From Clostridia bacterium (GTDB lineage Bacteria; Bacillota; Clostridia; Peptostreptococcales; JAAYPU01): DNA of 64,000 bases. The stretch lies in contig JADQBM010000054.1 of NCBI GenBank assembly GCA_016278615.1, positions 23,104 to 87,103 of the forward strand, written 5' to 3'. A program made the position numbers and the translations under genes. Below, one piece after another: positions 6,064 through 63,424 of this stretch. The notes under the pieces were generated by a model. The model saw only the letters and a list, made by a program, of their open reading frames with translations. It did not search any database and was not told the DNA's origin. Each line of letters begins with the position of its first letter. The first letter of the stretch is position 1.

Positions 6064-6183
6064 TAAGTGGAAGAATTTGACTTAACGCTTAATATAATGT
6101 AGAATATTGTAAAATAATCATTTGGTGATATATATGAAAAAATTTAAGTGTATAAAAAATTTAAAATTTATAGGTTTTTAAAG

Positions 6184-6220
6184 ACCGACTAACTAGCTTA
6201 GTCGGTTTTATTTTTTTTTG
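6184..6220 (+). terminator. Rho-independent terminator after tniQ paralog 1
   Basis: ACCGACTAA / TTAGTCGGT perfect 9-bp stem with loop CTAGC, followed by a T-run. Confidence 0.7.
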
Positions 6221-6272
6221 TAAAAAATAAATTAAAAAAATTTTAAAAATTAAAATAAAAAGGAGAATTTAT

Positions 6273-8948: not shown

Positions 8949-8987
8949 GTAATAGTTGTGCATTTTTCCGTATGAGAGGTTAAAAAA

Positions 8988-10169: not shown

Positions 10170-10213
10170 ATATATAAAAAAGATAGAAACAAGAGAAACA
10201 AGGGGGAATTTAT

Positions 10214-11512: not shown

Positions 11513-11789
11513 TTGCACGGAAATTAGTGATTAAGTATACAGAAAATTTTTAAACCAAAAACAAAATCCTTATTACATTTATAGTAATGTGGATTTATAA
11601 TTTTGTTATATAATATGGTAAAATATTGATGTGTTAGATAATTTATCTTATAATGATGTTTAATTTCATTGTGTTACTCGTTATTGTTTTGTAAAATATA
11701 ATTAAGAAAAGTATGGACAATTTCTAGAGATGTCAAAAGTCTCTGGATTATAGATATAGAAAAAAGAAATGAATACAGGAGGACACCCC

Positions 11790-13370
11790 GTGCCAACATT
11801 AAACTGGATAGGAAAAGAAAAGGTAATTAATCATCATTTAGATGTACCATATAGAGTGTTAGACCGTAAATACAGTTTTGATGAAAACGGACAACATAAA
11901 GAGGATAATGTTAGTGAAAATAAGATTATTCGTGGTGACAATTTGGAGGCATTAAAAGCACTTTTACCACAGTACGAAGGTAAAGTTAAGTGTATTTACA
12001 TAGACCCACCATATAATACAGGCGAAGAAAAATGGATATATAATGATAATGTAAATGACTATAAATTAAAAAAATGGCTTGGTGAAGTTGTGGGAAAAGA
12101 AGGAGAAGATTTATCAAGACATGATAAGTGGCTTTGTATGATGTATCCACGTTTAAAATTATTACATAAATTATTAGATAAAATAAATGGTGTTATTTTT
12201 ATTTCGATAGATGAAAATGAATTTGCTAATCTAAAACTTATTTGTAATGAAATCTTTGGTAGTAATAAACATATTGCAACGATAGCTTGGCAAAAAAGAT
12301 ATTCACGAGAAAATAGAGAAGCAATTGGAGACGCTCATGAGTATATTTTAATCTATGCTATGGATAAAAAACAATTTAAGGAAAATAGACATTTAGTACC
12401 TATGAATGAAAAACAAGCAAAAGTATACAAAAATTCTAATAATGATCCTAAAGGAAGATGGAGACCAATACCTATGACTGCACAAGCAGGACATGCTACA
12501 AAAGATCAGTTCTATCCAATTGTAGCACCAAAAGGAGAGATTCATTATCCTCCTGAAGGTAGATGTTGGAGTATGATGGAAGATACATTTAATGAGCTTC
12601 TTTCACAAGGCAGAATTTATTTTGGTAAAAACGAAAATTCGCAGCCAAATGTTATTAGATACTTGTCAGAAGTTGATGGGGTTGTTCCTTGGACATGGTG
12701 GCCCCACGAAGAAGTTGGACATACAGATGGTGCAAAAAAAGAAATCTACTCAATTCTAGGAAAAAAAGTTGCTTTTGATACTCCAAAGCCAGTTACATTA
12801 ATAATGAGAATTATTCAAATGATAACTGATAAAAATGATATTATACTTGACAGTTTTGCTGGAACAGGTACAACCGCACATGCAGTTTTGAATATTAACA
12901 AAGCAGATGAAGGCAATCGCAAATTTATATTAGTTGAAATGGAAGATTATGTTGAAAGCATAACTGCTGAACGTGTAAAACGCATTATTAACGGTTCTAG
13001 TGATTTTGAAGGTACTGGTGGGAGTTTCAGCTTTTATGATTTAGGAGAACCACTTTTAACTGAAAATCAAAATTTGAACGAAAATATTTCTGTTGATAAA
13101 ATTAGAGAATATATTTATTTTATGGAAACTAAGGCAATCTTACCGAGAAATAATGAGAAATATTATCTTGATACATATAACAATACAGCATACTATTTCT
13201 TTTATGAAAAAGATAAAGTTACAACTTTAAATTATGAATTTTTAAAGACAATTAAAGTTACAGCAGAAAATTATGTTATTTATTCAGATATTTGTTCTTT
13301 AAGTGAAGATGAACTATTAAAATATCATATCACGTTTAAAAAAATTCCACGTGATATAGCTAGACTGTAG
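11790..13370 (+). CDS. mod: Type III restriction-modification methyltransferase (Mod)
   Basis: IYIDPPYNTG (DPPY catalytic motif) and DSFAGTGTTAHAV (SAM-binding motif I). GTG 11790 lies 7 nt after SD AGGAGG (11777-11782). The in-frame ATG at 11769 has no SD. Confidence 0.85.
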   Translation: MPTLNWIGKEKVINHHLDVPYRVLDRKYSFDENGQHKEDNVSENKIIRGDNLEALKALLPQYEGKVKCIYIDPPYNTGEEKWIYNDNVNDYKLKKWLGEVVGKEGEDLSRHDKWLCMMYPRLKLLHKLLDKINGVIFISIDENEFANLKLICNEIFGSNKHIATIAWQKRYSRENREAIGDAHEYILIYAMDKKQFKENRHLVPMNEKQAKVYKNSNNDPKGRWRPIPMTAQAGHATKDQFYPIVAPKGEIHYPPEGRCWSMMEDTFNELLSQGRIYFGKNENSQPNVIRYLSEVDGVVPWTWWPHEEVGHTDGAKKEIYSILGKKVAFDTPKPVTLIMRIIQMITDKNDIILDSFAGTGTTAHAVLNINKADEGNRKFILVEMEDYVESITAERVKRIINGSSDFEGTGGSFSFYDLGEPLLTENQNLNENISVDKIREYIYFMETKAILPRNNEKYYLDTYNNTAYYFFYEKDKVTTLNYEFLKTIKVTAENYVIYSDICSLSEDELLKYHITFKKIPRDIARL

Positions 13371-13381
13371 GTGGTGACAAA

Positions 13382-15979
13382 ATGGAGTTAAAAAAATATC
13401 AAAAACAAGTACTAAAAGACCTTACAGATTATCTAAGAGTTTTAAATGAGACTTATGATTTAAACACGTCCTACATTAAGTACTGGGAAAATAAAGATGT
13501 TAAGGTTGGTTTGGGGGGGTTACCTAACTATAAAGATACAATAAGTAGAACACCAAATATTTGCTTTAAAGTGCCAACAGGTGGAGGAAAAACATTTATT
13601 GCGTCTGCATCGCTAAAGCTTTTTTTTGATCATATGTCGTTATCGAAATCAAAGGTTGTTGCTTGGCTTGTTCCATCAAATGCAATACTAGAACAAACAA
13701 TTCGCACTTTGAGCGATGTAACTCACCCTTATAGACAAAAAATTGAGTTGGATTTTAACGGCAGAGTTGAGGTGTTGGCTAAAGAGCAACTACTAAATGG
13801 GCAAAGCTTTAATCCTACTTCTATAAAGGAACAACTTACTATTTGTGTTCTTAGTTACGATTCTATCCGTAGTAATAAAAAAGAGGGTAGAAAAGTCTAC
13901 CAGCAAAATAGCCAATTGGCACCGTTTGAAGTATTTTATAAAACTCCTGAAACTTTGATTGAAAATGTAGACAATACGGCACTAATTCAAGTTTTAAATC
14001 AGTTATCGCCTATTGTGGTTGTTGATGAAAGCCATAATGCGGAATCTGATTTAAGTGTTGAAATGATTAAGAATCTTAATCCATCATTTGTGCTTGATTT
14101 GACTGCGACACCGAAAAAGAATAGTAATATTATTTCTTATGTTGATGCTAGAGAACTAAAAAAAGAGAATATGGTCAAATTACCTGTTGTCGTGTATAAC
14201 CGTAATAGCAAGCAAGATGTTGTATCAGATGCAATACATCTTCGCGAAAATCTTGAAAAACAAGCCCTAGAGAAAGAAGTACAAACAGGAACATATATAC
14301 GCCCAATTGTTCTTTTTCAAGCTCAGCCAAAAGGAAAAGAGGATAATGCAACTTTTGAAAAGTTAAAGGAAGAATTAATTGGACTTGGGATACCAAAAGA
14401 ACAAATAGCTATAAAAACATCAAATATAAATGAAATTAAAGGTACTGACTTAATAAGTAGAGATTGCGAAGTAAGATATATTATCACGGTAAATGCTTTA
14501 AAGGAAGGTTGGGACTGTTCTTTCGCATATATTCTCGCTACACTTGCCAATAAAACTTCAAAAGTTGATGTGGAGCAAATTTTAGGTCGTGTATTGCGGT
14601 TACCATATGCAACAAAACATAAAAGCTCTGCTCTTAATTTGGCATACGTTTTAACCTGCTCAAATGATTTTAGAGATACACTTGAGAATATCGTAAAGGG
14701 TTTAAATAAAGCAGGATTTAGTAAAAAAGATTGTAGAATTGGTGAAATCGTAGGAAGTGAGATAGAACAACCACAATATGCTCAAGAAGAACAATTATCT
14801 ATAAAAGAAAGTAATGTGAAAGAAGAATTCTTGGACATTGATTTTAATATAGTTAAAGAAAATATCGAAACTTTAAAAGACAAAATTAATAAAGATAATA
14901 TTTCTGAAATGATAGAAATTGCTATAAAACAAAATGAAGAGTATGAAAGTAAGATAAAAAAATTTGAAGCAGAAGGTTTTTTTGGAGGTGAGATTGGTGG
15001 ATTTATGAATCAGTATAAAATGAATGAGCAGTATAAAAATTCAATGAATATTCTTCCGCAGTTTGTCCATAAGGAAGCGGTGCCTCTATTGGGAATAGCT
15101 GAATCTGTTTTGCTTACAAAAGAGTATTTGAATGATGGGTTCACACTTGCTGATAAGGACGCACAAATTAATCTTCAACTATCGACTAATGATGTATATA
15201 AAGTTGATATTTCTGTAAACGGTGAAGCTGTTCCTAAATATCAAAAAGCAACGGAAAAAGAAAGTAAATATTTCAAAGAATATTTTGACACATTGCCAAG
15301 TGAAAGTAAAATTAAAATATGTAAAGACATGTTATATCAACAGCTTAATAAATCTGATAGCACGGTTTCGATGGATTTGCGTAACTATATAGATAGAATT
15401 GTAGATAATATGACAAAAGATGAATTAGCTGTGCTTGAAACATCTATTACTACCTATTCAAGAAAGATAAAAGAAAAAATCGATCAATTACAACTTGAAT
15501 ATAGAGAAAAACAATTCAAAAAGATGATCGATACAGGCGAAATTATATGTGAGCCGTATTATAGTTTGCCTATGGTTATTTGTCCTGTTAATAGTATTGA
15601 TTCTATTCCTAATTCATTATATGAAGCAGAAGGCGATATAAATGATTTTGAACATCAAGTTATTACGGAAATTTCAGGTCTTGAAAATATTTTGTGGTGG
15701 CATAGAATCATTGATCGCAAAGGTTTTTGTTTAAATGGCTTTATCAATCATTATGCTGACTTTATGATTATGACTAAAAATGGTACACTCGTTATAATAG
15801 AGACAAAAGGAGATTATCTTGATAATACAGACAGTAAGCAAAAATTGTTGCTGGGCAAACTATGGCAGGCAAATGCAGGTAATGGCTATAAGTATTTTAT
15901 GGTATTTAATAATAAAGACTTAAAACTTGACGGAGCTTATGTATTAGATGAATTTATAGGCGTGATAAAGAAGTTATAG
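13382..15979 (+). CDS. res: Type III restriction enzyme Res subunit (SF2 helicase plus PD-(D/E)xK nuclease)
   Basis: Helicase motifs FKVPTGGGKTFIA (I), VVVDESHNA (II), LDLTATP (III), QILGRVLRLP (VI). C-terminal ADFMIMTKNGTLVIIETKG is a nuclease motif. Confidence 0.85.
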   Translation: MELKKYQKQVLKDLTDYLRVLNETYDLNTSYIKYWENKDVKVGLGGLPNYKDTISRTPNICFKVPTGGGKTFIASASLKLFFDHMSLSKSKVVAWLVPSNAILEQTIRTLSDVTHPYRQKIELDFNGRVEVLAKEQLLNGQSFNPTSIKEQLTICVLSYDSIRSNKKEGRKVYQQNSQLAPFEVFYKTPETLIENVDNTALIQVLNQLSPIVVVDESHNAESDLSVEMIKNLNPSFVLDLTATPKKNSNIISYVDARELKKENMVKLPVVVYNRNSKQDVVSDAIHLRENLEKQALEKEVQTGTYIRPIVLFQAQPKGKEDNATFEKLKEELIGLGIPKEQIAIKTSNINEIKGTDLISRDCEVRYIITVNALKEGWDCSFAYILATLANKTSKVDVEQILGRVLRLPYATKHKSSALNLAYVLTCSNDFRDTLENIVKGLNKAGFSKKDCRIGEIVGSEIEQPQYAQEEQLSIKESNVKEEFLDIDFNIVKENIETLKDKINKDNISEMIEIAIKQNEEYESKIKKFEAEGFFGGEIGGFMNQYKMNEQYKNSMNILPQFVHKEAVPLLGIAESVLLTKEYLNDGFTLADKDAQINLQLSTNDVYKVDISVNGEAVPKYQKATEKESKYFKEYFDTLPSESKIKICKDMLYQQLNKSDSTVSMDLRNYIDRIVDNMTKDELAVLETSITTYSRKIKEKIDQLQLEYREKQFKKMIDTGEIICEPYYSLPMVICPVNSIDSIPNSLYEAEGDINDFEHQVITEISGLENILWWHRIIDRKGFCLNGFINHYADFMIMTKNGTLVIIETKGDYLDNTDSKQKLLLGKLWQANAGNGYKYFMVFNNKDLKLDGAYVLDEFIGVIKKL

Positions 15980-16065
15980 AGAAATATACATTTTGTGAAG
16001 TTGAAAAATATAATTAATAGTCTGGTCTTAAGTAGGGTGAAGTGGTAAAGCTTAATCCTTAACAT

Positions 16066-16222: not shown

Positions 16223-16830
16223 GACGCAGAGGGAGCAAGGAGGGAGAGCATCTCCCTCGTTAAGAGACTGATGTTGTCAGTCGGAGTTCCTCTTCAGGGG
16301 TGACAGGCAGAATACTTTCTGCCGCCAAGAGGGGACAGAGTCCCCTATGGAGAGCGCCAGCGACAGGAGGTTGTTCGAATCATCTCGGGAGTGCCAGAAG
16401 CAATCCTCGTTTTCCTTGGATTTTCAAGGAAGATGAGGATTTTTGTGTTCAAGAGAACTTGCAGTTGATTACGAGTAGTTATAGATTCCGTCCTTGTGAC
16501 TGCCTGGGGGTGACAGGCAGAATACTTTCTGCGGCCAAGAGACTTAAATGGGCAGAGCCCGGGGACATTCCTCAAAGAAATTCACCGTCTTGTAGAGGTG
16601 TGTCCCATTTCCTTATAAGAGCGCCAGCGACAGGAGGTTGTTCGAATCATCTTGAAGCCCTAGCTCAAATCTCTGATTTGATGTGCAGGTCTCATGCAAC
16701 ACGAAAAGTGGAACTCTCCAATCTTTGATTGGAAAGAGTTGCCATTCGCAACGAAACAGAAATTTTAGATTTCGTTGTTGAGACTGTGTAAATCTTAGAT
16801 TTCGTCTTCGTGACTGCCTAGAGTGCCAAA
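16223..16830. repeat. GC-richer mosaic repeat region built of hairpin words with internal duplications
   Basis: GGGGTGACAGGCAGAATACTTTCTGC(C/G)GCCAAGAG occurs at 16297-16331 and 16507-16541. AGAGCGCCAGCGACAGGAGGTTGTTCGAATCATCT occurs at 16351-16385 and 16618-16652. The segment 16652-16757 is related to units at 58751-58957 and 62025-62125. Confidence 0.8.
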
Positions 16831-18166: not shown

Positions 18167-18239
18167 TGTTCATTGAATATGAGGAGACTTAATATGAAAT
18201 AGTGCAAACAGGATTTCATTTTAGCGGTATTAGTGATAG

Positions 18240-18469
18240 GTCTTGCTTAATAAAGCTGGAATGACACCAAGCATGTCACGAGTAGGAAAATGTATTGATA
18301 ACAGACCGATGGAAGGGTTCTTTGGAATATTAAAATCAGAAATGTTTTATGGTAAAACTTTCAATCGTTAGAAGAATATATAAAGTTCTACAATGAAAAG
18401 AGATTTCAAAAAAGGCTAAAGTGCTTAGCTCCGATGGAATATCGAAACCAAGCACTCTTAATTGCATGA
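18240..18469 (+). pseudogene. IS3-family transposase (OrfB) C-terminal remnant
   Basis: Translates to VLLNKAGMTPSMSRVGKCIDNRPMEGFFGILKSEMFYGKTFNR, then a stop. After a frame change it continues EEYIKFYNEKRFQKRLKCLAPMEYRNQAL. This is the conserved tail of IS3/IS150 transposases, with an internal deletion and no upstream part. Confidence 0.7.
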
Positions 18470-18555
18470 TATTTAATTAATTCACCTGTCTACTTGACAT
18501 GGGTCAGTTCATATCCTCGGTTTTCCTATTTGAATTAAGTATAATCAAAAGTGAT

Positions 18556-32614: not shown

Positions 32615-32695
32615 GTCTAAATGAAAGGGCAAACCTCTTGAAAGGGAGAGACGCAAAACTATAGGGCCTTAAAGGGCAGCCAGTTTCCAAGTTAG
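32615..32695 (+). promoter_or_regulatory. c-di-GMP-I (GEMM-I) riboswitch aptamer
   Basis: GGGCAAACCUCUUGAAAGGGAGAGACGCAAAACUAUAGGGCC...GGGCAGCCAGUUUCC. It contains GGCAAACC, a GAAA-capped hairpin, ACGCAAA and AGCCAGUUnCC in the canonical order. It lies ~90 nt upstream of the MCP start. Confidence 0.75.
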
Positions 32696-32781
32696 ATTTT
32701 TTCTTTTAGAAAGGAGGCGTATAATACTATAACTTTAGTCAGACAAAATATAAAATTGAAAGCAAGATGAGGAGGATTTAT

Positions 32782-35376
32782 ATGTCAATATTTCTTAATC
32801 GTAAAATTGCTACAAAGATGATTACCGGGTTTGTTTTGGTTGCGCTTATTGCTGCAGTTGTTGGGGTTATAGGCATACAAAACATGCATGTTATTGATGA
32901 AGCAGATACAGAGCTTTATGAATTAAATTTGGTTCCTATCGTTTATCTTGGGGAGATGACCCAGACGTTTCAGGAAATACGTAGTTATATGTACTATGCC
33001 ATTCTTGCAGAAACCCCTGAAGCAAAAGCAGAGGCTCTTGATAGAATGATTGCGAGAAGGACTGTATTTAGTGAGGCCTATGAAGCTTTTGGGGCAATAC
33101 CCATGACGGAAGATGAGCAGGCGAAATATAATGAACTTACTGAAGCGCGAAAAGACTATGCAGATGCTTATAACCAGGCCATGGAGTTCATTGAAGAAAA
33201 CAGGATTTCAGAAGCCATTGCAATAGTAGGAGACGACGGCGCATATGGCATAGCCCTTAAGGCTGAACAGGACATTATTACTGAAATAGTAGAAATGAAA
33301 ACAGAAAACGCACAAGCACAAGCAGAAAACAATACTGAAACAGCAAACTCAGCAACAACAATGATGATTATTATTATAGCCGCTGGAGTCATTGTCGCTA
33401 TTCTTATAGGCATCTTCTTAAGTCGCATTATTGCAACGCCCATTAAGAAAGTAACCAATGCTGCCCAAAGACTTTCTTTAGGAGATATTAATGTCAATGT
33501 AGAATCCACAAGCAAAGATGAAATAGGATTACTGACCAACGCTTTCTCAGAAATGGTAGAAAACATCAAGGAGCAGGCAGAAAATGCCCAAAGAATTGCT
33601 GAAGGCGATTTATCCATAGAAATCGAAGAGAAATCGGATAAAGATGTTTTAGCACTAAGTATGAAGAAGGTAGTAGATTCTTTAAGAACATTAGAAGAAG
33701 AACAACAACAATTAATTGATGCGGTTGTTCATGGTAAACTGGATCATCGTGGGCAGACAGATAAGTTTAATGGTGCCTATAAAAATATAGTCAGTGGCAT
33801 CAATCAGCTAGTTGGGTCTTTGGTTAACTATTTTGAAATAATACCCAATCCTATACAGTTTATGGATAAAGATTTGAATTTTCTGTATATGAACAAGACA
33901 GCCAGCAGTCTTCTGGGGAAATCAAAAGAAGAGCTTAAAGGAACCATGTGTGCAGATGCATGGAAGACCAGTAAGTGCTTGAAGGCAGATTGTCCTTGTG
34001 CTCGTTCAATGAAAGAAAATGAAGTTGTATTAGCCGATAATGATTGTGATATAGGTGGAAAGCATTATGACATCTACTGTACAGGAGCACCTATAAAAGA
34101 TTTACAAGGTAATATCGTGGGATCCTTTGAATTTGTTATGGACCAATCAGATGTGAAACAAGCACAAAGAGTTGCACAAAAAGTATCTGATTATCAAGGA
34201 AAAGAAGTCGTAAAAATAAGAGAGCAGCTAGAGAAATTATCAGAAGGAGACTTAGATATTTCAGTTCAGATAGAAAACGGAGACATGGATACACAAGAAG
34301 CTCGAGCAGCATTAAACGAGATAGCAGATGCGGTTAACAAAACAGCTAAACAGCTAAAGGATATAATAAAAGAAATATCAATGGTTTTATCAGAAATGGC
34401 AGATAAAAATCTGGATATAGAAATAGAGACACAATACCTTGGTGAATTTGTACAGCTAAAAGATTCTATAAATTACATAATTGAATCTTTCAATGTAACC
34501 CTTGGTGAAATCAATGCTTCTGCAGAGCAAGTAGGGTCAGGAGCGAATCAGGTAGCTTCCTCGAGTCAAGACTTGTCCCAAGGTTCATCAGAGCAAGCAG
34601 GCTCCGTAGAAGAAATCAGTGCAAGCATTACACAAGTAGCAGAACAAACCAAAGAAAATGCACAGAATGCAACCAAAGCCAATGATTTATCTGGGAAAGC
34701 AAAAGAAGATGCGCAAAATGGCAATGCCCAGATGGCTGAAATGCTCAAAGCGATGAATGAAATAAAAGAATCCTCAAAGAATATTTCAAATATCATAAAA
34801 GTCATTGATGAAATTGCATTCCAAACCAATATATTAGCATTAAATGCTGCTGTAGAAGCGGCGAGAGCAGGAGAACACGGAAAAGGTTTTGCTGTGGTAG
34901 CAGAAGAAGTGAGAAACTTAGCAGCTCGAAGTGCTAAGGCAGCAAAAGAGACAACGGAATTAATCGATAATTCCATCAATAAGGTGGATGAAGGTTATAA
35001 AATGGCCAATGATACAGCAGAAGCTTTAGGCAAGATTGTAACAGGTGTTACCAATGCAGAAGAGATTGTTGGAATGATAGCAGATGCCTCTAACGAGCAA
35101 GCCAATGCAATAGGAGAAATCAATCAAGGAATTGAGCAGATTTCTCAGGTAACCCAAAGCAATACCGCCACAGCAGAAGAAAGTGCATCCGCTAGTGAAG
35201 AAATGTCTGGACAAGCTCAGATGCTGAAAGAATTAATTCAGGAATTTAGGCTCAGAGACACAGGCAAAAAATTATCTGGAAACACCATAAATAGCAAAAA
35301 GATACAAGGGCCAAGAGCCAATGGAAAGGCAGATATTAAAATATCTTTAGACGATGACAGCTTTGGAAAATACTAG
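32782..35376 (+). CDS. Methyl-accepting chemotaxis protein (paralog of 29053-31695) with 4-Cys PAS-like domain
   Basis: Same architecture as the 29053 paralog. Cys motif [22 protein letters not shown]. The start is ATG 32782 after SD GAGGAGG. The track start at 32767 lies inside the SD. Confidence 0.9.
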
Positions 35377-44343: not shown

Positions 44344-45300
44344 ATGAAAATTCGGTTTGGCTATGTAGCATCTGCTTTAAATCTTGAGGGAATCACGTCG
44401 TCAGGGGTGCTTACTTTTTCCAGATACAAAAAACTATCCCCAGATGACAGGATTAATGAGTTGAAACGAGTTACCATGTCTAATATCAAGGCACTGGAAA
44501 CAATAATAAAATACAACATTAAGAACCAGATTCATTTTTATAGAATTACTTCAAAGCTTTTTCCACTGGCTACACATCCTGAAGTAACAGAATGGAATTA
44601 CAAGGATATTTTTTATAAAGAGTTGGTAGACGTGGGGTCGTTGATTAAAAAATATGACATGAGAGTGGATACCCATCCAGATCATTTTAATGTCATTAAC
44701 AGCTTAAAAGAAACGGTTGTCAGTAGCACCATAAAAGAATTGGAATATCATAATAATATTTTTGAATTGTTAGATTATCCTGAAGGAAAGATGATATTGC
44801 ACTTAGGAAGTACTCAAGGAGGAAAGGAACAAAGCATTGAGCGTTTAGTAAAAAATTTTGAAACAATCTCCAAAGACATCCAATCTAAAATAATTTTGGA
44901 GAATGATGATAAAACCTTTAATATTTTAGAAACTTTATCTACATGTCAAAGGTTGAATATTCCCATGGTATTGGATTATCATCATTATATTTGTAATAAA
45001 GGCGGAATTATTTTAGAAGATTATATACATGAAATATTAGAGACCTGGCGGAAGCAAGCGCTTCCGCCAAAGGTGCATATTTCAAGTTCGCGAGAAGAAA
45101 AAAATAAGATGAGTCATTCAGATTATTTGGATCCTAAAAATCTTTTTGATTTTCTTGAGATTCTAAAAAAAGGAGAGCGGGATGTAGATGTGATGCTTGA
45201 ATCTAAACAAAAAGACAGAGCACTTTTTAGGCTCATGAAGGAGATTAGAGAGATTGACAAAAATATCAAGTGGATAGATGAAACTACCATGGAAATATGA
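44344..45300 (+). CDS. uvdE: UV damage endonuclease UvdE
   Basis: IRFGYVASAL, DTHPDHF, LENDDK, LDYHH: TIM-barrel UvdE signature segments. Confidence 0.8.
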   Translation: MKIRFGYVASALNLEGITSSGVLTFSRYKKLSPDDRINELKRVTMSNIKALETIIKYNIKNQIHFYRITSKLFPLATHPEVTEWNYKDIFYKELVDVGSLIKKYDMRVDTHPDHFNVINSLKETVVSSTIKELEYHNNIFELLDYPEGKMILHLGSTQGGKEQSIERLVKNFETISKDIQSKIILENDDKTFNILETLSTCQRLNIPMVLDYHHYICNKGGIILEDYIHEILETWRKQALPPKVHISSSREEKNKMSHSDYLDPKNLFDFLEILKKGERDVDVMLESKQKDRALFRLMKEIREIDKNIKWIDETTMEI

Positions 45301-45304
45301 TAGA

Positions 45305-45735
45305 ATTTTAGAACAGGGTACAGGTGACAGGTGACAGGGAACAGAGATTAGAGATGTGTAGGGACGAGATTAGGGATTAGGGATTAGAGATTAGGGATGT
45401 GTAGGGACGACCCTTGCGGTTGTCCTTAAGAGATTGTAGGGGCCGGTCGCCGTGCCTGCCCGAGAAAAAGCAAGTTGAAGTTTAAGTGTAAGTAGAAGTG
45501 AAAGTTGAAGGATAAGGGTAAGCAGAAGCAGAAGCAGAAGTAGTTTAAGGTTAGCAAGAAGTCTTTAAACTAACACTACTCCGAAGGAGTCCATTTAAAC
45601 TTAAACTCAACTTATGCTACTCCGAAGGAGTCCACTTAAACTTCAACTTATGCTACTCCGAAGGAGTCCATTTAAACTTAAACTCACCTATGCTACTCCG
45701 AAGGAGTCTATTTATACTTAATACTTATACTAGGA
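45305..45735. repeat. Composite mosaic element (heptamer arrays, GC-rich word, AAGNNN hexamer array, ~41-bp tandem repeats)
   Basis: ACAGGKN heptamers at 45311-45345. TTAGGGA-type repeats with ATGTGTAGGGACGA twice. GTAGGGGCCGGTCGCCGTGCCTGCCCG. Twelve in-phase AAGNNN hexamers at 45472-45543. Four tandem units containing ACTCCGAAGGAGTC at 45576-45730. Confidence 0.85.
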
Positions 45736-45743
45736 GAATTATC

Positions 45744-46190
45744 ATGCATGAATTTTTTATGAGAGAAGCGTTAAAAGAAGCCCAAAAAGCATATGAATTG
45801 GGAGAAGTACCCATAGGAGCCGTTGTTGTAAAAGAGGGGAAGATCGTTGGGTCGGGACATAATATGAGGGAAAGTTTAAAAGATCCTATAGCACATGCGG
45901 AGATTATGGCAATACGAGAGGCTTCCAAGTGTTTAGGTGGATGGAGATTGATAGATTGCGAAATGTATGTTACAGTAGAGCCGTGTCCTATGTGTGCAGG
46001 TGCAGCAGTGATGGCAAGGCTTAAGCATGTTTACATTGGTACTATGGACAGCAAAGGTGGGGCAGCAGGTTCCGTTATGAACGTTTTACAGGATGAACGC
46101 TTAAATCATATGCTTCTGATTACAACAGGGATTTTACAGGAGCAATGTGAAAAAATCATGAAAGATTTTTTCAAACAGTTAAGACACTAA
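45744..46190 (+). CDS. tadA: tRNA adenosine(34) deaminase
   Basis: HAEIMAIREAS and VEPCPMCAGA zinc-binding motifs. The start is MHEFFMREAL after SD TAGGAGA. The track start at 45690 reads through the repeat. Confidence 0.85.
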   Translation: MHEFFMREALKEAQKAYELGEVPIGAVVVKEGKIVGSGHNMRESLKDPIAHAEIMAIREASKCLGGWRLIDCEMYVTVEPCPMCAGAAVMARLKHVYIGTMDSKGGAAGSVMNVLQDERLNHMLLITTGILQEQCEKIMKDFFKQLRH

Positions 46191-46895: not shown

Positions 46896-47120
46896 ATGAA
46901 TCATAAAACAGTTAAAACAATATCTAATATCCTTTTTTATATGGCTATAATTATTGGAGGATATGGGATATTTAAAACAATTATTACTTATATAAACACA
47001 CCACCAGGGGTATGCCCTATTTCGAGTTATAGACAATATTTAATTTATGCCTTGGGATTATCCGTTCTTTCTTTAATTGCGACATGGTTTAATGATAGGA
47101 GATTAGGGAATAGAGATTAA
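46896..47120 (+). CDS. Hypothetical membrane protein (74 aa)
   Basis: SD GAGGTGA. Two hydrophobic helices. The last codons run into the heptamer repeat array. Confidence 0.5.
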   Translation: MNHKTVKTISNILFYMAIIIGGYGIFKTIITYINTPPGVCPISSYRQYLIYALGLSVLSLIATWFNDRRLGNRD

Positions 47121-47170
47121 GATGAATAGATGAAAGTTATGGTTAGTTTTGCTTAGGCAAAACTTTCTTT
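47095..47170. repeat. Short mosaic element (heptamer array plus hairpin)
   Basis: GATTAGGGAATAGAGATTAAGATGAATAGATGAAAG, then the hairpin GGTTAGTTTTGCTTAGGCAAAACTTTC. The same word occurs at 61898-61922. Confidence 0.7.
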
Positions 47171-49616: not shown

Positions 49617-49829
49617 GAAGAGGTAGAAATTTTTAGATAACAGATAAAAGATAAAAGTTTAGGATAATTTTGTTGCACAAAATTTTCATATTTATCGGAA
49701 AAAAGATTTTACAAAAAAAGAAAGTTTTGCAAAAGCAAAACTCACCATAACTATTATCTATTATCTATTATCTATTATCTGTTATCTCTTATCTATCTCT
49801 TATCTATCTCTTATCTATCTTTTACCCTG
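49617..49829. repeat. Palindromic mosaic element (archetype) between convergent dinB and ald
   Basis: GATAANA-type array at 49634-49657. Hairpins at 49664-49688 and 49722-49741. The reverse-complement TNTTATC array lies at 49749-49822. Confidence 0.85.
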
Positions 49830-51500: not shown

Positions 51501-51774
51501 TTCTCCTTTATTCTAAGTATGTAGTTGAAAACGTATTACTATGCGCAAGATTTATTCATATTTTATCATATTGGAGAATGTATTTAAACAGTTAGAGGAA
51601 ACTGCAGAAAATATTACGGTTATTTTATAAAAGACGGAAAATTATTTGAAAGAATTTATTTAAAATGATTGCCATGTATAATTATTTTGGTTAAATCTTA
51701 AATGAATTTAGATTTTAATTGGAAAAATTTAAAAAATAAGGTTATATTCAATAAAGAAATGGGTAGTATAAATA

Positions 51775-51858
51775 ATGAACGGCAAACCCCCTTAAACCCC
51801 CTATTATAAAATATTTATAATCCCCCCACTAAAGGCACTCGTTGGAGTGCCTTTTTTG
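51775..51858 (+). ncRNA. Candidate small RNA with three C-rich motifs and an intrinsic terminator
   Basis: C5-C6 runs at 51787-51791, 51797-51801 and 51822-51827 in an AT-rich context. GGCACTC GTTG GAGTGCC hairpin plus T6 at 51833-51857. No ORF fits. The 5' end is not defined. Confidence 0.3.
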
Positions 51859-51887
51859 AGAATTCCCATGCACAAAATATTTGGTAA

Positions 51888-51896
51888 TGGTATAAT
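51888..51896 (+). promoter_or_regulatory. Extended -10 promoter element (TGGTATAAT)
   Basis: TGnTATAAT match. The -35 is weak. It would drive a ~290-nt glnS leader composed of the mosaic element. Confidence 0.4.
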
Positions 51897-52165
51897 AGTG
51901 TAAAGTCCGTAGGGGCTGGCCTCGCGCCTGCCCGGTAATAGTAAGAGTAAGTTGAAGTTTAAGTTTAAGTAATAAGTAGTTGAAGTACAAGTGTTATGGT
52001 AGATTTTGTTTTACAAAATCCTCTATTTATACTTAAACTACTCCGAAGGAGTCTTTTTAAACTTAAGCTTCACGATTAATACCACTCCGAAGGAGTCTTT
52101 TTAAACTTAAGCTTCACGATTAATACCACTCCGAAGGAGTCCACTTAAACTCAAACTTCAAAATT
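51897..52165. repeat. Composite mosaic element, second copy of the 45305-45735 type
   Basis: GTAGGGGCTGGCCTCGCGCCTGCCCG, an AAGNNN array at 51943-51972, the hairpin GATTTTGTTTTACAAAATC, and a 44-bp tandem unit containing ACTCCGAAGGAGTC. The unit is exact at 52041-52084 and 52085-52128, with a partial third copy. Confidence 0.85.
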
Positions 52166-52195
52166 TATATATATAACGAAAGGTTGGTTGATAGA

Positions 52196-53866
52196 ATGGC
52201 AGCAGATAACGAAAAAAATATAGGAAAAACTGAAACTGAAGAGACGTCTTCAAATTTTATTCAAAATATAATTGATGAAGATTTAAAAGAAGGTGTATAT
52301 AAAAATAGAGTACATACACGTTTCCCGCCTGAGCCAAATGGCTATCTACATATTGGCCATGCTAAATCCATTTGTTTGAATTTCAGCTTGGCTGAAAAAA
52401 ACAAAGGATTATGCAATTTAAGATTTGATGATACGAATCCTGTAAAAGAAGACATCGAATATGTGGAATCCATAAAAGAGGACGTTAAATGGCTTGGATT
52501 TCAATGGGATGGCTTATATTTTGCATCGGATTATTTTCAAAAGATGTATGAATGTGCTGTCAAGCTAATAAAAAAAGGAAACGCATATGTTTGTGATTTA
52601 TCGGCTGAAGAAATAAAAGCCTTTAGAGGTACCCTTAATGGCCCTGGGGAAAATAGTCCTTTTAGAAACAGAAGCATAGAAGAAAATCTTGAATTATTTG
52701 AGAAAATGAAAAACGGTGAATTTAAAGATGGTGAAAAAGTATTGCGCTTGAAGATTGATATGGCATCACCTAATTTAAACATGAGGGATCCCGTTGTCTA
52801 TAGAATTTCTCATAATACGCATCATAACACGGGTGATGAGTGGTGTGTTTATCCAATGTATGATTATGCGCACCCTTTAGAAGACGCTTTTGAGAATATA
52901 ACCCATTCAATCTGCACACTGGAATTCGAAGATCATAGGCCTCTTTATGATTGGGTATTAAAGGAATTAGAATTCATAACCCCTCCTAAACAGATTGAAT
53001 TTGCCAGACTCAACTTGACCCATACAGTAATGAGTAAACGGTATTTGAAAGCCCTTGTAGAGGATGGGGCAGTAGAAGGCTGGGATGATCCCAGAATGCC
53101 TACCATTGCAGGTCTTCGAAGAAGAGGCTGTACGCCTGAAGCCATTCGTGATTTTTGTGATAGAATAGGCGTTGCTAAGAGCAACAGTACGGTTGATATG
53201 GCTCTTTTGGAACATTGCATTCGAGAGGATCTCAAACCCAAAGTTGAGACGAAAATGGTGGTTGTAGATCCTTTGAAAGTTGTTATTACCAATTACCCCG
53301 AGGAACAAGTAGAATGGTTTGAGGTTGAGAACAATAAGGAAGATGAAAGTATGGGAAAAAGAAAAGTGCCTTTTTCTAAAGAAATCTATATTGATAGAGG
53401 AGACTTCATGGAAAACCCCCCTAAAAAGTTTTTTCGATTATTTTTAGGTAATGAAGTGCGTTTAAAAGGTGCTTATTTCATAAAATGCCAAGAAGTCATT
53501 AAGGATTCTGAAGGCATGGTGACTGAATTAAGATGTACTTACGATCCAGAGACTCGAAGTGGAAGTGGATTTAATGCACGAAAGGTTAAAGGAACTTTGC
53601 ATTGGGTGGATGCTGCTCATGCACAAAAAATAACAATCAATGCTTATAGCCATCTCATGGTGCAAAATGAAGATGAAGAAAATGTTCTAAATCCTGAATC
53701 TCTCAAGATATATAAAGGCTATGCAGAACCAAGCATCAAGGATTCAAAACATAATCAGCGATATCAATTCTTTAGACATGGATACTTCTTTGCAGATCCC
53801 GTACTTACAAAAGGCGATGCTTATGTTTTTAATCGAATTGTTGAGCTTAAAAGCTCATATAAGTAA
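52196..53866 (+). CDS. glnS: Glutamine--tRNA ligase
   Basis: [14 protein letters not shown] (HIGH), VMSKR (KMSKS) and a GlnRS-type N-terminus. ATG 52196 is preferred over the TTG at 52184. Confidence 0.9.
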
Positions 53867-55628: not shown

Positions 55629-55882
55629 TATAAGAAAGATAAGAGATAACAGATAAGAGAATCACAAGATAGATAAGAGAATCACAGGAAAGATAAGAGA
55701 TAATAGATAATAGTTAAGGAATAAAAAAGGGACTAAAAGCATTTTAGTCCCTTTTTTAAATCTAAGTAGAAACATAGATAAATCCATGAAAAATGAAGAT
55801 TTTGGAACAAAATCCACCTCAACTGTTATCTGTTATCTATTATCTATTATCTTTCTTGCAATTATCTATTATCTGTTATCTC
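55629..55882. repeat. Palindromic mosaic element between convergent ClC and hydF genes
   Basis: GATAAGA-type array at 55632-55718, a central terminator hairpin, the hairpin GATTTTGGAACAAAATC, and the inverted TNTTATC array at 55822-55886. Confidence 0.85.
55723..55757. terminator. Bidirectional terminator
   Basis: AAAAAAGGGACTAAAA / TTTTAGTCCCTTTTTT, symmetric with A/T runs on both sides. Confidence 0.8.
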
Positions 55883-57085
55883 TTATCTTTCTTTTAATTT
55901 CTTTTCATACATTCCCGTCACCTTATCCAGTATGCCATTCATATAGGCAATGGCGGTACCGTAATTTGTAATGGGAATATTATTTTTTTGGGCTTGGATG
56001 ATTCTTGACATCATTTGCTTTCGGTTAAACATACAACCACCACAGTGGATGATCAATTTATATTCAGAAAGATCATCCCCAAAATCAATACCAGCCTTTG
56101 TAACGGTTTCTATCTTCTTCCCTGTATATTCTTTCAGCCATTTAGGTAATTTTTCTCTTCCGATATCACCCTGCAGAGGATGATGGGTGCAGGCTTCGGC
56201 GATTAAAACCTTATCATAATCCTGAAGTTCACTGATTGCGACGGCACCTGCTATAAAACTGTCTAAATCCCCTTTGTATCGAGACATTAATATAGAAAAT
56301 GAAGTTAAAGGCACATCTTTAGGGAGTATCTCATTGACTTTTTCAAATACCTGAGAGTCTGTTACAACTAAATCAGGTTGATGCTTTATCTTTGTGAGCA
56401 TAACTTCAAGGTTGTCATCTGTTACGGTTATGGCGAGGCCTTTGTGGTCTAAGATATCACGAAGGGTCTGAACCTGAGGTAAGATTAATCGACCTTTTGG
56501 CGCTTGAATGTCTTGAGGCGCAACCAACACAATGGTATCACCTGGCTTTATCAAGTCTCCTAAAATGGTATCCTTCTCATAGAAGGGAACATGATGAAAC
56601 AGCTCCGTTTTTAGGCGCTGGATGGAAGCGGGGTCATTAGTACAAGTCTTAACAAAAGGCATATCAAATTCTTGATACATAGCCATATCAGGATTGAGGA
56701 TATCTATTTTATTTATAACACCTATAACAGGAATATTTGCCTCCTTAAGCATAGAAAGCCATTCATGCTCTATGGGACTTATTGGGTTTTCTGATGAAAA
56801 AATAACTAAAGCAATATCTGTTTTAGAAATAACTTCCCTTGTTTTATTAACACGGAGCGTGCCAATGTCCCCCTCATCATCAATACCTGCTGTGTCAATA
56901 ATAACTACAGGACCTATAGGTAATAGCTCCATAGCCTTGTATACAGGGTCTGTTGTCGTGCCGGATATATTGGATACTAAAGCAATATCTTGCCCAGTGA
57001 TGGCATTAATCAAACTAGATTTGCCAACATTACGCCGCCCAAAAATAGCAATGTGCAGTCTATTGGCATTTGGTGTATGTTGCAT
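55883..57085 (-). CDS. hydF: [FeFe]-hydrogenase H-cluster maturation GTPase HydF
   Basis: GRRNVGKSSLINAITG (G1), DTAGIDD (G3), and C-terminal EACTHH ... HCGGCMFN cluster-binding cysteines. Confidence 0.85.
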   Translation of the reverse strand: MQHTPNANRLHIAIFGRRNVGKSSLINAITGQDIALVSNISGTTTDPVYKAMELLPIGPVVIIDTAGIDDEGDIGTLRVNKTREVISKTDIALVIFSSENPISPIEHEWLSMLKEANIPVIGVINKIDILNPDMAMYQEFDMPFVKTCTNDPASIQRLKTELFHHVPFYEKDTILGDLIKPGDTIVLVAPQDIQAPKGRLILPQVQTLRDILDHKGLAITVTDDNLEVMLTKIKHQPDLVVTDSQVFEKVNEILPKDVPLTSFSILMSRYKGDLDSFIAGAVAISELQDYDKVLIAEACTHHPLQGDIGREKLPKWLKEYTGKKIETVTKAGIDFGDDLSEYKLIIHCGGCMFNRKQMMSRIIQAQKNNIPITNYGTAIAYMNGILDKVTGMYEKKLKER

Positions 57086-57104: not shown

Positions 57105-57265
57105 CTTGATATAGATAAGAGATAACAGATAATAGATAAGAGTTAAGGTAGAAATTTTTCTTTGTTCAAATTTCCTCTATCAATCTTTTAATTCAATTGG
57201 AGATTTTAGAATCAAAATCATCCTTAACTGTTAACTGTTATCTATTATCTCTTATCTTTCAATTT
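57105..57265. repeat. Palindromic mosaic element in the hydG-hydF intergenic region
   Basis: GATAAGAGATAACAGATAATAGATAAGAGTTAAGG (57108-57148), the hairpins GAAATTT...AAATTTC and GATTTTAGAATCAAAATC, then CCTTAACTGTTAACTGTTATCTATTATCTCTTATC (57222-57260). Confidence 0.85.
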
Positions 57266-60574: not shown

Positions 60575-61780
60575 ATGATGCAAAATTCTAAGAAAAAAAT
60601 TCAACAAATAATCGCAATATGTATGGGGCATTTTATGAATGATGTATTTATGAATTTACTCATTCCCTTGTCTTTTTTGTTTAAAATTAAAATGGGGTTA
60701 ACCTATGCGGAACAAGCCATGATTGGTACTGTCATTATTTCCTTAGGATCTTTTGGACAGCCTCTTGTTGGGCATGCTGTAGACAAAAAAGGAAAATCAG
60801 GGCTTTTAATTATAGCAATCCTATGGATTGGGGTGCTTACAAGTATTGCAGGCTTTATTAACCACTACTATTTACTTCTTTTTATAGCGGGATTAGGTGC
60901 CTTGGGGTCTGCACTTTATCATCCCTTAGGATCATCTTTAGTAATTAATCTTTTAGGGAAAACAAAGGGTGCTGGACTGTCTATCTTTATCACCGTAGGA
61001 AGTTTTGCTATTGGATTTGCTCCATTTGTGGCCATTCCCTTAGCAACAAAATTTGGTTTAAAGTCTTTGGTTCTTTTTATCATTCCGACTATTATAACGG
61101 CTGCAATTATGTACTTTTTTAAAGTTCATGAGATAAAACTTGGTGTAAAGGCAGAAGATGATAAAAATACAACAAGGGTGATTGATAAGTCTAAAATAAG
61201 TTGGGTTGCCTCTTTGATTACGGTTTCAGTTATTCGGTCCTTAATCTTTAGAAGTTTTTTGTTGGCCTTTGGTGTTCAAGTATTACTCATGAAAGGGGTA
61301 GAGGAGATTGTAGCAGGAATTGCACTCTCTCTGCTTATGTGGACGACATCTGCTGGAACTTTTGCTGGAGGCTACCTTAGTGATAAATACGGTGGAAAGA
61401 ATACAATGATTTTTTCTAGTGTCGTTGTAACCCTTCTTCTTATTTTATTAATTATTGCCAAAGGTGTTCCTTCACTCATTATTTTCATCTTGATAGGTTT
61501 TGGTGCCGGGCTGGGCAATGCCCCAAATATCACCATGGCACAAGAGATCATACCAAGGAATACCAGTCTCGCTACAGGACTCATCTTTGGTCTTGGGGGA
61601 GGACTGGGGGGCGTAATCATGTACTTTTATGGAATGATAGCGGACTCTACAAGTCTTTTTACAGCGGTTACATTACTATTAATTCCAGTTATTATTATGG
61701 ATATATTGATTTTTCTAAATCCAATATATGAGGATGGAGAAATTGTGACCAAACTGACAGTTAAGCGAGAAAAAAGATAG
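60575..61780 (+). CDS. MFS transporter
   Basis: About 12 hydrophobic helices. The start is ambiguous (TTG 60563, ATG 60575 or ATG 60578). Confidence 0.7.
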   Translation: MMQNSKKKIQQIIAICMGHFMNDVFMNLLIPLSFLFKIKMGLTYAEQAMIGTVIISLGSFGQPLVGHAVDKKGKSGLLIIAILWIGVLTSIAGFINHYYLLLFIAGLGALGSALYHPLGSSLVINLLGKTKGAGLSIFITVGSFAIGFAPFVAIPLATKFGLKSLVLFIIPTIITAAIMYFFKVHEIKLGVKAEDDKNTTRVIDKSKISWVASLITVSVIRSLIFRSFLLAFGVQVLLMKGVEEIVAGIALSLLMWTTSAGTFAGGYLSDKYGGKNTMIFSSVVVTLLLILLIIAKGVPSLIIFILIGFGAGLGNAPNITMAQEIIPRNTSLATGLIFGLGGGLGGVIMYFYGMIADSTSLFTAVTLLLIPVIIMDILIFLNPIYEDGEIVTKLTVKREKR

Positions 61781-62153
61781 ATAAAAGATAATAGATAAGA
61801 TAGGCAAGAAGAATAGATTAGAGATAACAGATAATAGATGAGTAGGGATAGATAATAGATAAGTAGGGATAGATAACAGATAACAGATAAGAGTTGTGGT
61901 TAGTTTTGTGAACAAAACTTTCATTATGTATAGAAAAATATTCTATTAGATAATTAGGACATTTTGTGCTAAACAAAATGTCTACCTTACTGAAAAATTC
62001 TTTTAAAATCAACAGATTTTAGAATTTCCACGGAGCGAATGGCAACTTTAACTAATCGTAGATTAGAAAGTTCCACTTGTATGAGACCTGCACATCAAAT
62101 CATAGATTTGAGCTAGGGCTTCAACTGTTATCTATTAATTATTATCTATTATC
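61775..62153. repeat. Large mosaic element (heptamer arrays, three hairpins, inverted GC-word block)
   Basis: GATAANA-type array at 61775-61893. Hairpins at 61898-61922 and 61958-61982. GC-word block at 62025-62125 in inverted orientation. TNTTATC array at 62125-62153. Confidence 0.85.
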
Positions 62154-62193
62154 TAAAAAAGTAAAAGGGCTTTGATAGCAAAGGATGAAGTAT

Positions 62194-63275: not shown

Positions 63276-63278
63276 AAA

Positions 63279-63398
63279 AATAACAGATAAGAGATAAGAG
63301 ATAAAAGATAACAGTTAAGGAGAATTTTGTTTCACAAAATTTAATTAAATAATAATAGTTTTGCTTCAGCAAAACTTCCCAAAACTATTATCTATTAA
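63279..63398. repeat. Mosaic element (heptamer array plus two hairpins plus short inverted array)
   Basis: ATAACAGATAAGAGATAAGAGATAAAAGATAACAGTTAAGG, the hairpins GAATTTTGTTTCACAAAATT and AGTTTTGCTTCAGCAAAACT, then ACTATTATCTATTAAG. Confidence 0.8.
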
Positions 63399-63424
63399 GA
63401 AAAACAGATAAAGGAGAAAAAAAC

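Follow-up and report, generated by a model that had tools for sequence, protein, structure and literature searches.

The window analysed here is a stretch of 64,000 nucleotides (nt) from a Clostridia bacterium (GenBank assembly GCA_016278615.1, contig JADQBM010000054.1, positions 23,104 to 87,103 of the forward strand). Two of its genes, tadA and glnS, are each preceded by a composite repeat in which a phased array of AAGNNN hexamers faces a set of tandem units that carry a 13-nt mini-hairpin. The flanking genes are uvsE, tadA (start at 45744), the divergent lrp and glnS (start at 52196), and the tadA product is a protein of 148 amino acids (aa), identical to P0001. The best identities of GlnS, 73–85%, place the organism near the Anaerovoracaceae (Family XIII), and by this measure the host is an uncultured relative of the Peptostreptococcales/Anaerovoracaceae. 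The modules of the composite exist, the composite is dispersed as a unit, and its copies are gained, lost and replaced while the promoter and the ribosome-binding site on either side of them stay in place.

Anatomy of the tadA and glnS copies

Both copies fill the DNA between a promoter-like −10 element and the ribosome-binding site of the gene downstream (Table 1), a position from which they are very probably transcribed as 5′ untranslated regions (UTRs). An earlier note, made from the letters of this DNA, had already proposed such a transcribed leader, and most of what it described stands. The twelve in-phase hexamers of the tadA copy can be read directly from the sequence (in order AAGTTG, AAGTTT, AAGTGT, AAGTAG, AAGTGA, AAGTTG, AAGGAT, AAGGGT, three times AAGCAG, AAGTAG), as can the GC-rich word on their 5′ side, the two heptamer arrays further upstream, the shared orientation of the two copies and the extended −10 of glnS with TGCACA 16 nt upstream of it. 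The proposed complementarity of hexamer array and tandem units is borne out at 17 of 17 positions (45472-45488 against 45633-45649). Four units with the mini-hairpin are indeed present at tadA, but their hairpins are spaced 41, 36 and 40 nt apart and not at a uniform distance of about 41 nt. The second copy, at glnS, has the same modules and exact 44-nt units, although these lie at 52040-52083 and 52084-52127, one base from where they had been placed; its AAGNNN array is likewise present, but keeps phase for only six units. One feature had been overlooked, namely the extended −10 right before the tadA copy, where TGATAAAAT is retained at the same place in the relatives L089 and L092.

Table 1. 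Features of the two composite copies and of the heptamer-type elements in the window
Feature	Position	Strand	Remarks
Promoter-like site 5′ of tadA copy	45278..45306	+	ATGAAA, 17-nt spacer, TAGAAT
Extended −10 of tadA copy, TGATAGAAT	45298-45306	+	Overlaps uvsE stop codon
ACAGGKN heptamer array	45311..45344	+	~4.9 copies; Tandem Repeats Finder and sequence
ATTAGRG heptamer array	45345..45400	+	Repeat itself at 45368-45398; Tandem Repeats Finder and sequence
Truncated first GTAG hairpin, GTGTAGGGACGAG	45356-45368	+	Inside ATTAGRG array
REP-A, GTAG-tagged hairpin, GTAGGGACGACCCTTGCGGTTGTCC	45401..45425	+
REP-B, GTAG-tagged GC-rich imperfect palindrome, GTAGGGGCCGGTCGCCGTGCCTGCCCG	45436..45462	+
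5′ arm of tadA copy	45472..45543	+	12 phased AAGNNN hexamers, consensus KAAGTD, 76% purine
Degenerate central core, GTTTAAGGTTAG...CTAAC	45543..45577	+	Compared with core common to heptamer elements
3′ arm of tadA copy	45575..45731	+	Four tandem units of 36-41 nt
Mini-hairpins of tadA copy, ACTCCGAAGGAGT	45578, 45619, 45655, 45695	+
tadA ribosome-binding site AGGAG and ATG (45744)	45732..45746	+
glnS promoter-like site	51869..51896	+	TGCACA, 16 nt, TATAAT with TG; conserved in L026, L089 and L092
Extended −10 of glnS, TGGTATAAT	51888-51896	+
REP-B copy, GTAGGGGCTGGCCTCGCGCCTGCCCG	51909..51934	+
5′ arm of glnS copy	51937..51993	+	AAGNNN hexamers, six in phase, then one-base slip
Central core, TTATGG-TAGATTTTGTTTTACAAAATC-CTC	51994..52023	+	Hairpin, −8.5 kcal/mol, z −3.6; common to heptamer-type elements
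3′ arm of glnS copy	52024..52165	+	Three 44-nt units (two identical), each with mini-hairpin
Mini-hairpins of glnS copy, ACTCCGAAGGAGT	52040, 52084, 52128	+
glnS ribosome-binding site GAAAGGTTGG and ATG (52196)	52178..52198	+	Site conserved in L089 and L092
Heptamer foldback, (AGATAAN)3, two core hairpins, (NTTATCT)~10	49635..49829		Between convergent dinB and ald; z −4.8
Heptamer foldback, strong terminator hairpin at apex	55630..55892		Between convergent clcA and hydF; −101.9 kcal/mol, z −13.5
Heptamer foldback	57110..57260		Between hydG and hydF, both on − strand; z −6.6
Heptamer element, GTAGGGA inserts in left array, shared core, short right array	61768..62155		Between a major facilitator superfamily (MFS) transporter gene and truA
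Heptamer element, two core hairpins	63278..63400		Between yhbY and an AHSA1-like gene

Each 3′ unit of the tadA copy opens with the mini-hairpin (ACTCC-GAA-GGAGT) and continues as (NNACTT)n, in which the 5′ hexamers recur as their reverse complement. In the glnS copy the last 3′ unit pairs with the 5′ arm over 19 nt, 18 of which match (95%). The arrays are far from what chance would give: a five-unit AAGNNN pattern has 11 matches in the window against 0.03 expected, all of them within the tadA and glnS loci, and the mini-hairpin occurs seven times exactly in the 64 kb, always on the + strand, where 0.58 occurrences would be expected even at two or fewer mismatches. The tadA copy alone carries extra material on its 5′ side, comprising the two heptamer arrays, the second GTAG hairpin and its truncated duplicate; the ACAGGKN array is without a complementary partner array.

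A coding role for the tadA composite was considered and rejected. It contains no open reading frame (ORF) of at least 60 aa, and its 3′ edge is touched solely by an antisense ORF internal to tadA and by an in-frame upstream extension of tadA from ATG 45690, which just prolongs the frame into the last repeat unit; homologues start at 45744.

As RNA, both leaders have predicted folds more stable than those of shuffled controls (z −3.2 and −2.4), with the two arms paired in each, as the earlier note had expected, and this pairing closing the structure. The ribosome-binding site is unsequestered in the centroid fold. The mini-hairpin alone is weak (−4.6 kcal/mol), and together with a following CTTTTT was flagged as a terminator by a simple scan, a candidate that we reject at so low a stability. 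Among 17 copies of the mini-hairpin, 13 are of the canonical form, one carries two changes that compensate each other (ATTCC..GGAAT), one is a loop variant, one is broken and one contains two G.T wobbles that permit pairing on the sense strand only.

The GC-rich words are the sole non-coding GC islands of the window. They are imperfect palindromes of 25–27 nt, resembling repetitive extragenic palindromes (REPs), and all begin with GTAG. REP-A (25 nt) folds to −13.9 kcal/mol on the + strand (z −4.0) and to −9.9 kcal/mol on the other, the difference being due to G.U pairing; only its GT is unpaired, the AG entering the stem. REP-B (26–27 nt, −11.5 kcal/mol) has a 7-bp stem with an internal mismatch and leaves GTAG outside the predicted stem; its four copies (two in the window and one each at L005 and L008, metagenome loci described below) vary chiefly in the loop. 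Three full copies of GTAG hairpins and some fragments lie in the 64 kb, and two in 11 kb of a relative, all extragenic. The tadA copy contains two REPs, head-to-tail on one strand, and the glnS copy a single one; bacterial interspersed mosaic elements (BIMEs), in which REPs of alternating orientation are set apart by conserved linker motifs, are thus not represented by either copy. None of the REPs in the window has a transposase ORF beside it.

Dispersal of the composite and turnover in relatives

Comparison of seven copies, the two in the window and five found by a pattern scan of metagenomes in one sample only (Ga0209347), gave a common plan. The 5′ arm consists of ~6–17 KAAGTD hexamers. 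An optional GC-rich word of 26–27 nt, GTAGGGGCYGG..CCTGCCCG, stands before, inside or after the hexamer array. The core, GTTATGG-TAGATTTTGTTTTACAAAATC, is followed by a 3′ arm of 1–4 units, each made of ACTCC-GAA-GGAGT and then TTTAAACTTAAACTT, the reverse complement of the 5′ hexamers. Further words of the family are the GTAG hairpins GTAGGGGC and GTAGGGAC and the element termini AAGTTGAAGTTTAAGT. The whole measures 200–430 nt, and its terminal arms of 16–19 nt are 95–100% complementary. The modular order first noticed in the window is kept in seven of seven copies, and the end modules pair in the predicted minimum-free-energy folds.

The seven copies sit beside genes with no pathway in common. 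Those at thyA and moeA (L004 and L008) are intercistronic, beginning right after the upstream stop codon with a co-directional gene directly downstream; an ABC ATPase gene precedes the moeA copy. The L005 copy lies directly upstream of a co-directional gene for an rlmL-like methyltransferase. Two are not leaders at all: the L006 copy follows the terminator of an aminotransferase gene, and the L007 copy lies directly against the 3′ end of fhs, a convergent gene. Judged from promoter-like sites and position, the copies probably sit in transcribed non-coding DNA. The glnS and L005 copies, at different loci, are 86% identical over 212 columns; the aligned stretch begins with the GTAG hairpin, takes in hexamers and core and extends as far as the second 3′ unit. 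Between these unrelated sites the composite must therefore have been copied as a unit.

Contigs assembled from the short reads of two independent samples match the window at 100% identity and break off within the arrays or the GTAG hairpin. The window sequence is thus genuine and no assembly artefact, and it is repetitive in the genome. SRR24974067 and JGI 3300032098 are samples in which the organism occurs. These same-strain contigs are identical up to the break and do not span the arrays.

Outside this setting the element was not encountered. An exact-pattern scan of 185,579 species genomes gave no match, nor did a scan of viral contigs, and blastn against plasmids and phages returned nothing. 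Rfam, at gathering and at permissive thresholds, gave nothing for the tadA copy at E values up to 10 and only chance-level hits for the glnS region. In the literature the mini-hairpin sequence turned up only in unrelated primer sequences.

Two syntenic relatives, L089 and L092, were recovered via their TadA homologues; their DNA shares ~75% identity with the window, and the two agree with each other at ~86%. The uvsE–tadA gap measures 443 nt in the window, 182 nt in L092 and 35 nt in L089, where it is empty. At the site of the hexamer composite, L092 holds a different foldback, made of (AGATAAA)3, a core hairpin and TTATCT-type repeats, and a comparison of L092 9819-10000 with L089 5966-6000 reveals the presence and absence of this 165-nt heptamer foldback. 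The tadA −10 (TGATARAAT) and ribosome-binding site are nevertheless retained in all three. The dinB/ald gap varies likewise, from 213 nt in the window and 169 nt in L092 to 4 nt in L089.

The glnS leader behaves in the same way. Its promoter TGGTATAAT is conserved in four of four genomes (the window, L089, L092 and L026), and its ribosome-binding site is common to three, L026 having GGGAAGGTG. The content between these sites is a GTAG hairpin and the hexamer composite in the window; (GGTTAGA)8, AGATAAN repeats and a GC hairpin in L089; (GAGTATR)6 with a complementary arm in L092; and GGTWTCW and GTGRTTA heptamers, AGATAAT repeats and a GC hairpin in L026. As promoter and ribosome-binding site are fixed and the content between them differs, this is the pattern of a fast-turnover repeat in the sole permissive DNA and unlike that of a conserved regulatory leader. 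The link that the earlier note drew between the composite and housekeeping genes is thus unsupported: relatives lack or replace the element, other copies stand between cistrons, after a terminator or beside a convergent gene, and the element is one variant of a wider foldback family that in the window extends to 3′ and convergent intergenic DNA.

Several other features were seen in the glnS region. The leaders of L026 (2870-2900) and L089 (11540-11570) contain a second type of GC-rich hairpin, TCATYGCGAGCGMAGCGYGGCRATCT, without the GTAG tag. In L009, an Anaerovoracaceae chromosome and a more distant relative, a unit of ~75 nt is present in 2.3 tandem copies upstream of glnS (2770-2950), each holding a TGATATAAT-like −10, so that the glnS promoter region itself appears to have been duplicated. 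Between lrp and the glnS promoter of the window lies a segment of ~95 nt (51760-51857, + strand) in which three CCCCC motifs precede an intrinsic terminator, GGCACTCGTTGGAGTGCCTTTTTT. The segment is nearly invariant in L089, L092 and L026, although the genes around it reach only ~75% identity, and the terminator stem of L026 shows a compensatory change. Rfam gives it a sub-threshold csRNA match (25 bits against a gathering score of 57), and it looks like a conserved C-rich small RNA in the style of RsaE/RoxS.

Related foldbacks and other features of the window

Foldbacks with a left arm of (AGATAAN)n and a right arm of (NTTATCT)n are present in about half of the larger gaps between genes from 45 to 64 kb; in three of them the predicted hairpin is far more stable than in shuffled controls (z in Table 1). 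They occupy convergent gaps, co-directional gaps and the space between hydG and hydF, and a one-armed remnant of the family was noted at 47100-47170. A core, AGTTAWGG..ATTTTGTnnnACAAAAT..TTC, is common to the heptamer-type and hexamer-type elements. Arm lengths differ greatly between and within copies; the units of left and right arms are complements in each type (AAGTNN/NNACTT, AGATAAN/NTTATCT, GAGTATR/YATACTC), and this matching of unit types is, as far as sequences can tell, covariation of whole arrays.

The first 45 kb of the window contain none of these elements. Positions 1-16000 form an island of low GC content (27–32%) without repeat arrays, in which a gene for a fused TnsA-like endonuclease and rve integrase (6273-8948) and a type III restriction–modification pair (methylase 11769-13370, Res helicase 13382-15979) were recognized; a Tn7-like transposon with a defence system as its cargo is the probable identity. 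In the gap after it (16760-16816) a 30-nt unit, AAATCTTAGATTTCGTCGTCGAGACTGTGT, occurs twice. A non-coding gap at 18167-18555, which in translation looks like the C-terminal portion of IS3-type transposases (..NRPMEGFFGILKSEMFYGKTF..), is, by eye, probably the remnant of an insertion sequence (IS). Chemoreceptor genes also follow the island within the first 45 kb. A c-di-GMP-I riboswitch (32618-32691, + strand, 59.6 bits, E 4e-9) is situated directly upstream of a methyl-accepting chemotaxis gene (32767-35376), with two further chemoreceptor genes just upstream of the riboswitch.

Interpretation and known systems

With moderate confidence we regard the tadA and glnS leaders as a lineage-specific, fast-evolving mosaic foldback repeat that is carried passively in 5′ UTRs. 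On balance, too, the composite seems not to be a conserved regulatory leader, its effects on the genes behind it being at most incidental or tuning ones.

In plan the element is a foldback, with a purine-rich 5′ arm of short tandem units (AAGTNN hexamers in the composite) and a 3′ arm of their reverse complements (NNACTT) on either side of a small, AT-rich core hairpin, AGTTATGG..ATTTTGTnnnACAAAAT..TTC. To this the hexamer subfamily would have added REP-type hairpins, GC-rich and GTAG-tagged, one or two per element, and the mini-hairpin, having settled in the 3′ arm, would have been amplified in tandem with three to four hexamers to give units of 36–44 nt. Arrays may grow and shrink by replication slippage, and the complementarity of the arms could be maintained by hairpin-templated (quasi-palindrome) correction, by selection for pairing or by both. 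The GC hairpins may move as single-stranded-DNA hairpins, like REPs with a REP-associated tyrosine transposase (RAYT). The element would be tolerated only where promoter, ribosome-binding site and coding sequence stay intact, and would for this reason fill the DNA from transcription start to Shine–Dalgarno sequence, or from stop codon to the next ribosome-binding site. The mRNA would carry a long 5′ UTR (~290 nt for glnS and ~430 nt for tadA) in a branched fold closed by arm pairing, and any effect on expression, through mRNA stability or processing by RNase III, would be a by-product with no specific response to a signal.

Several observations sit badly with purely passive carriage. The orientation follows the presumed transcribing gene in five of five informative hexamer-type copies, and five of the seven end just before a ribosome-binding site; a purely selfish element needs neither, and some selection or function at the RNA level is therefore possible. 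The sense-strand wobbles and the repeats that fill the glnS leader in four of four genomes keep such a role open as well, and a long structured leader may itself be selected. Replication strand was considered as a cause of the orientation and set aside, the flanking skew at L007 (−0.22) suggesting, as weak evidence, that this copy opposes replication. The 5′ arm is purine-rich (0.67–0.79) in nine of nine foldbacks. This asymmetry is a real feature because a foldback reads alike on both strands, and passive carriage leaves it unexplained. The composite may have spread by transposition, recombination or conversion: no transposase partner was found for it in the 64 kb, nor any target-site duplication or clean insertion boundary. 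Between the filled sites (the window and L092) and the empty one (L089) the whole stretch from −10 to Shine–Dalgarno is replaced and not merely interrupted, with no flanking direct repeat.

The unconserved content of the glnS leader and the orthologous tadA leader of L089, which is without the element, speak against the idea of a dedicated cis-regulatory leader, a composite RNA that would sense a signal or bind a factor to control tadA and glnS, for instance through alternative pairing of hexamers and 3′ units or through exposure or hiding of the GGAG in the mini-hairpins. Its appeal lies in the common orientation of the two window copies within 5′ UTRs and in the mini-hairpin, which pairs a Shine–Dalgarno-like GGAG with CUCC and has a conserved stem with one compensatory change. 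That hairpin is weak, however, the ribosome-binding site is free in the centroid fold, hexamers (~6–17) and units (1–4) vary in number, copies stand outside leaders (L006 and L007) and beside unrelated genes, and Rfam has no match. The comparative data appear largely to refute this reading, which we judge very unlikely. Less credible still, with a likelihood close to negligible, is a platform for an oligomeric RNA-binding protein, around which an AAG every 6 nt, twelve times over, would wrap. Ring proteins are known to bind such targets, TRAP 9–11 (G/U)AG repeats, HutP UAG repeats and Hfq ARN repeats; TRAP has 11–12 subunits, a number similar to that of the twelve perfectly phased sense-strand AAG triplets with their 3-nt spacers. 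AAG is a poor TRAP triplet, though, which weighs against the platform, as do a repeat number of ~6–17 with slips of phase, sister elements with AGATAAN units in the same architecture, relatives in which the arrays are missing, and a complementary arm that would compete for the array. Nor do the flanking genes share a pathway; the window copies, with AAG triplets in variable number, non-trp genes and no convincing terminator, do not resemble a TRAP-type leader, in which 9–11 (G/U)AG triplets with spacers of 2–3 nt overlap an antiterminator or terminator ahead of trp or related genes.

That the hexamer arrays are the terminal inverted repeats of a true miniature inverted-repeat transposable element (MITE), with its transposase encoded elsewhere, is improbable. 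Inverted repeats of 16–19 nt, a length of 200–430 nt without coding capacity, several copies, filled and empty sites and the 86% identity between copies at unrelated loci would all fit. Against it, arm lengths vary widely between and within copies, the window and L092 compared with L089 offer neither target-site duplication nor sharp boundary, the sample is of seven copies only, and no partner transposase was seen. The one candidate mover adjoins no other composite copy. It is a transposase gene of the IS110 family (DEDD) that starts ~450 nt downstream of the composite at L006 (1-620, on the − strand of that contig). Its proximity is coincidental, as the conserved left end of the IS starts ~170 nt beyond the composite and other copies of this IS (L093 and L095) have no composite repeat nearby. 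The three IS110 copies (L006, L093 and L095) have in common a non-coding stretch of ~230 nt on their upstream side, presumably the region of the IS110 guide RNA.

An evolutionary tuning knob, in which the arm hairpin in the 5′ UTR is cut by RNase III, repeat number alters expression and turnover is adaptive, is unlikely, though it is the main rival. The arrays lie between a promoter-like −10 and a ribosome-binding site, their arms are predicted to pair, and they are highly variable among relatives that keep both flanking sites. There is also a precedent, a heptamer hairpin in a transcribed 5′ UTR that is an RNase III target and whose repeat number does not change without transcription and the hairpin (PMC12721329). 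The genes concerned are nevertheless constitutive housekeeping genes (tadA, glnS, thyA and moeA) and no contingency loci, the family is found, too, in 3′ and convergent intergenic DNA, a position from which translation could not be tuned, and no length polymorphism within the population could be seen, the contigs from other samples being identical up to the break and leaving the arrays unspanned. A bolder variant, which we rate a long shot, is that a process coupled to transcription and hairpins may build self-complementary arrays of 6–7 nt around small terminator-like hairpins, filling 5′ UTRs from transcription start to Shine–Dalgarno and giving RNase III-processed, hypervariable tuning knobs genome-wide, even on housekeeping genes; this would be a mutational counterpart of foldback elements, with no transposase.

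A mosaic foldback repeat carried passively would mean that a phased ‘leader’ can be fast-turnover repeat DNA and no regulatory RNA, a caution for scans made from sequence only. If the arrays are unstable within populations, the mRNA stability of essential genes would be affected, as would strain typing and genome assembly, short-read contigs breaking at every copy. The asymmetry of the arms (purine 5′, pyrimidine 3′) and their co-evolution indicate a specific mutational or selective mechanism.

Known repeats resemble the composite in part. Intrastrand-triplex and G-quadruplex repeats from the literature were compared with the hexamer array and do not fit it. The short tandemly repeated repetitive (STRR) sequences of cyanobacteria are reportedly intergenic, lineage-specific heptamer arrays with one variable position and inserted hairpin repeats of 21–27 nt (Mazel 1990; Elhai 2008). 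They would differ in phylum and sequence, and the elements described here have in addition complementary array pairs around a core, a hexamer subfamily and an amplified mini-hairpin. Clostridia are not known for REPs. GTAG-tagged REPs are imperfect palindromes of 20–40 bp with an unpaired GTAG at one end, and the survey that describes them makes no mention of Firmicutes or Clostridia (Di Nocera et al. 2013, PMC3733652). The hairpins of the window fit this description: they start with GTAG, are GC-rich imperfect palindromes 25–27 nt long, lie in extragenic DNA that is probably transcribed, and occur singly or head-to-tail in mosaics. Unlike REPs they are embedded in AT-rich tandem arrays, and no inverted pairs of the REPIN (REP doublets that form hairpins) or BIME kind were seen (for REPs and REPINs see Bertels and Rainey 2011, PMC3116915).

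In architecture only, the Drosophila foldback transposons FB and Galileo are similar, with long terminal inverted repeats of short tandem repeats (PMC3573991) and arm lengths that vary widely between copies; those elements are eukaryotic, kilobase-scale and linked to a transposase. We found no bacterial description of an architecture in which inverted arms of phased 6–7-nt repeats surround a shared core with GTAG hairpins.

The BOX elements of Streptococcus pneumoniae are similar in plan. They consist of boxA, a variable number of boxB and boxC (Croucher et al. 2011, PMC3049150), and their confinement to one species and its closest relatives was read as a sign of parasitic origin, although they are co-transcribed and likely affect neighbouring genes (PMC3049150). 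As with BOX, the repeat described here is modular and interspersed in a Gram-positive host, its end modules pair and an internal module is repeated in tandem, in numbers that differ between copies; it is intergenic, predicted to be structured and narrowly distributed, and its co-transcription seems probable from position. The likeness is one of plan. The arms are phased simple-repeat arrays of 6–7 nt in place of the unique boxA and boxC, GTAG-type hairpins are embedded, and the amplified unit lies in the 3′ arm and not between the arms.

In function the closest parallel is with the heptamer repeat in the 5′ UTR of hmw1A and hmw2A of Haemophilus influenzae, whose arms form a long hairpin that is cut by RNase III and controls expression (PMC12721329). 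In both cases a short repeat occupies a 5′ UTR and its left repeats pair with a complementary right arm, a pairing that is predicted for the composite. The hmw repeat belongs to a single phase-variable adhesin locus, whereas the composite is a dispersed family found at housekeeping genes and also in 3′ regions. By analogy, the hmw heptamer hairpin is the best functional counterpart for what arm pairing in the tadA and glnS leaders might do.

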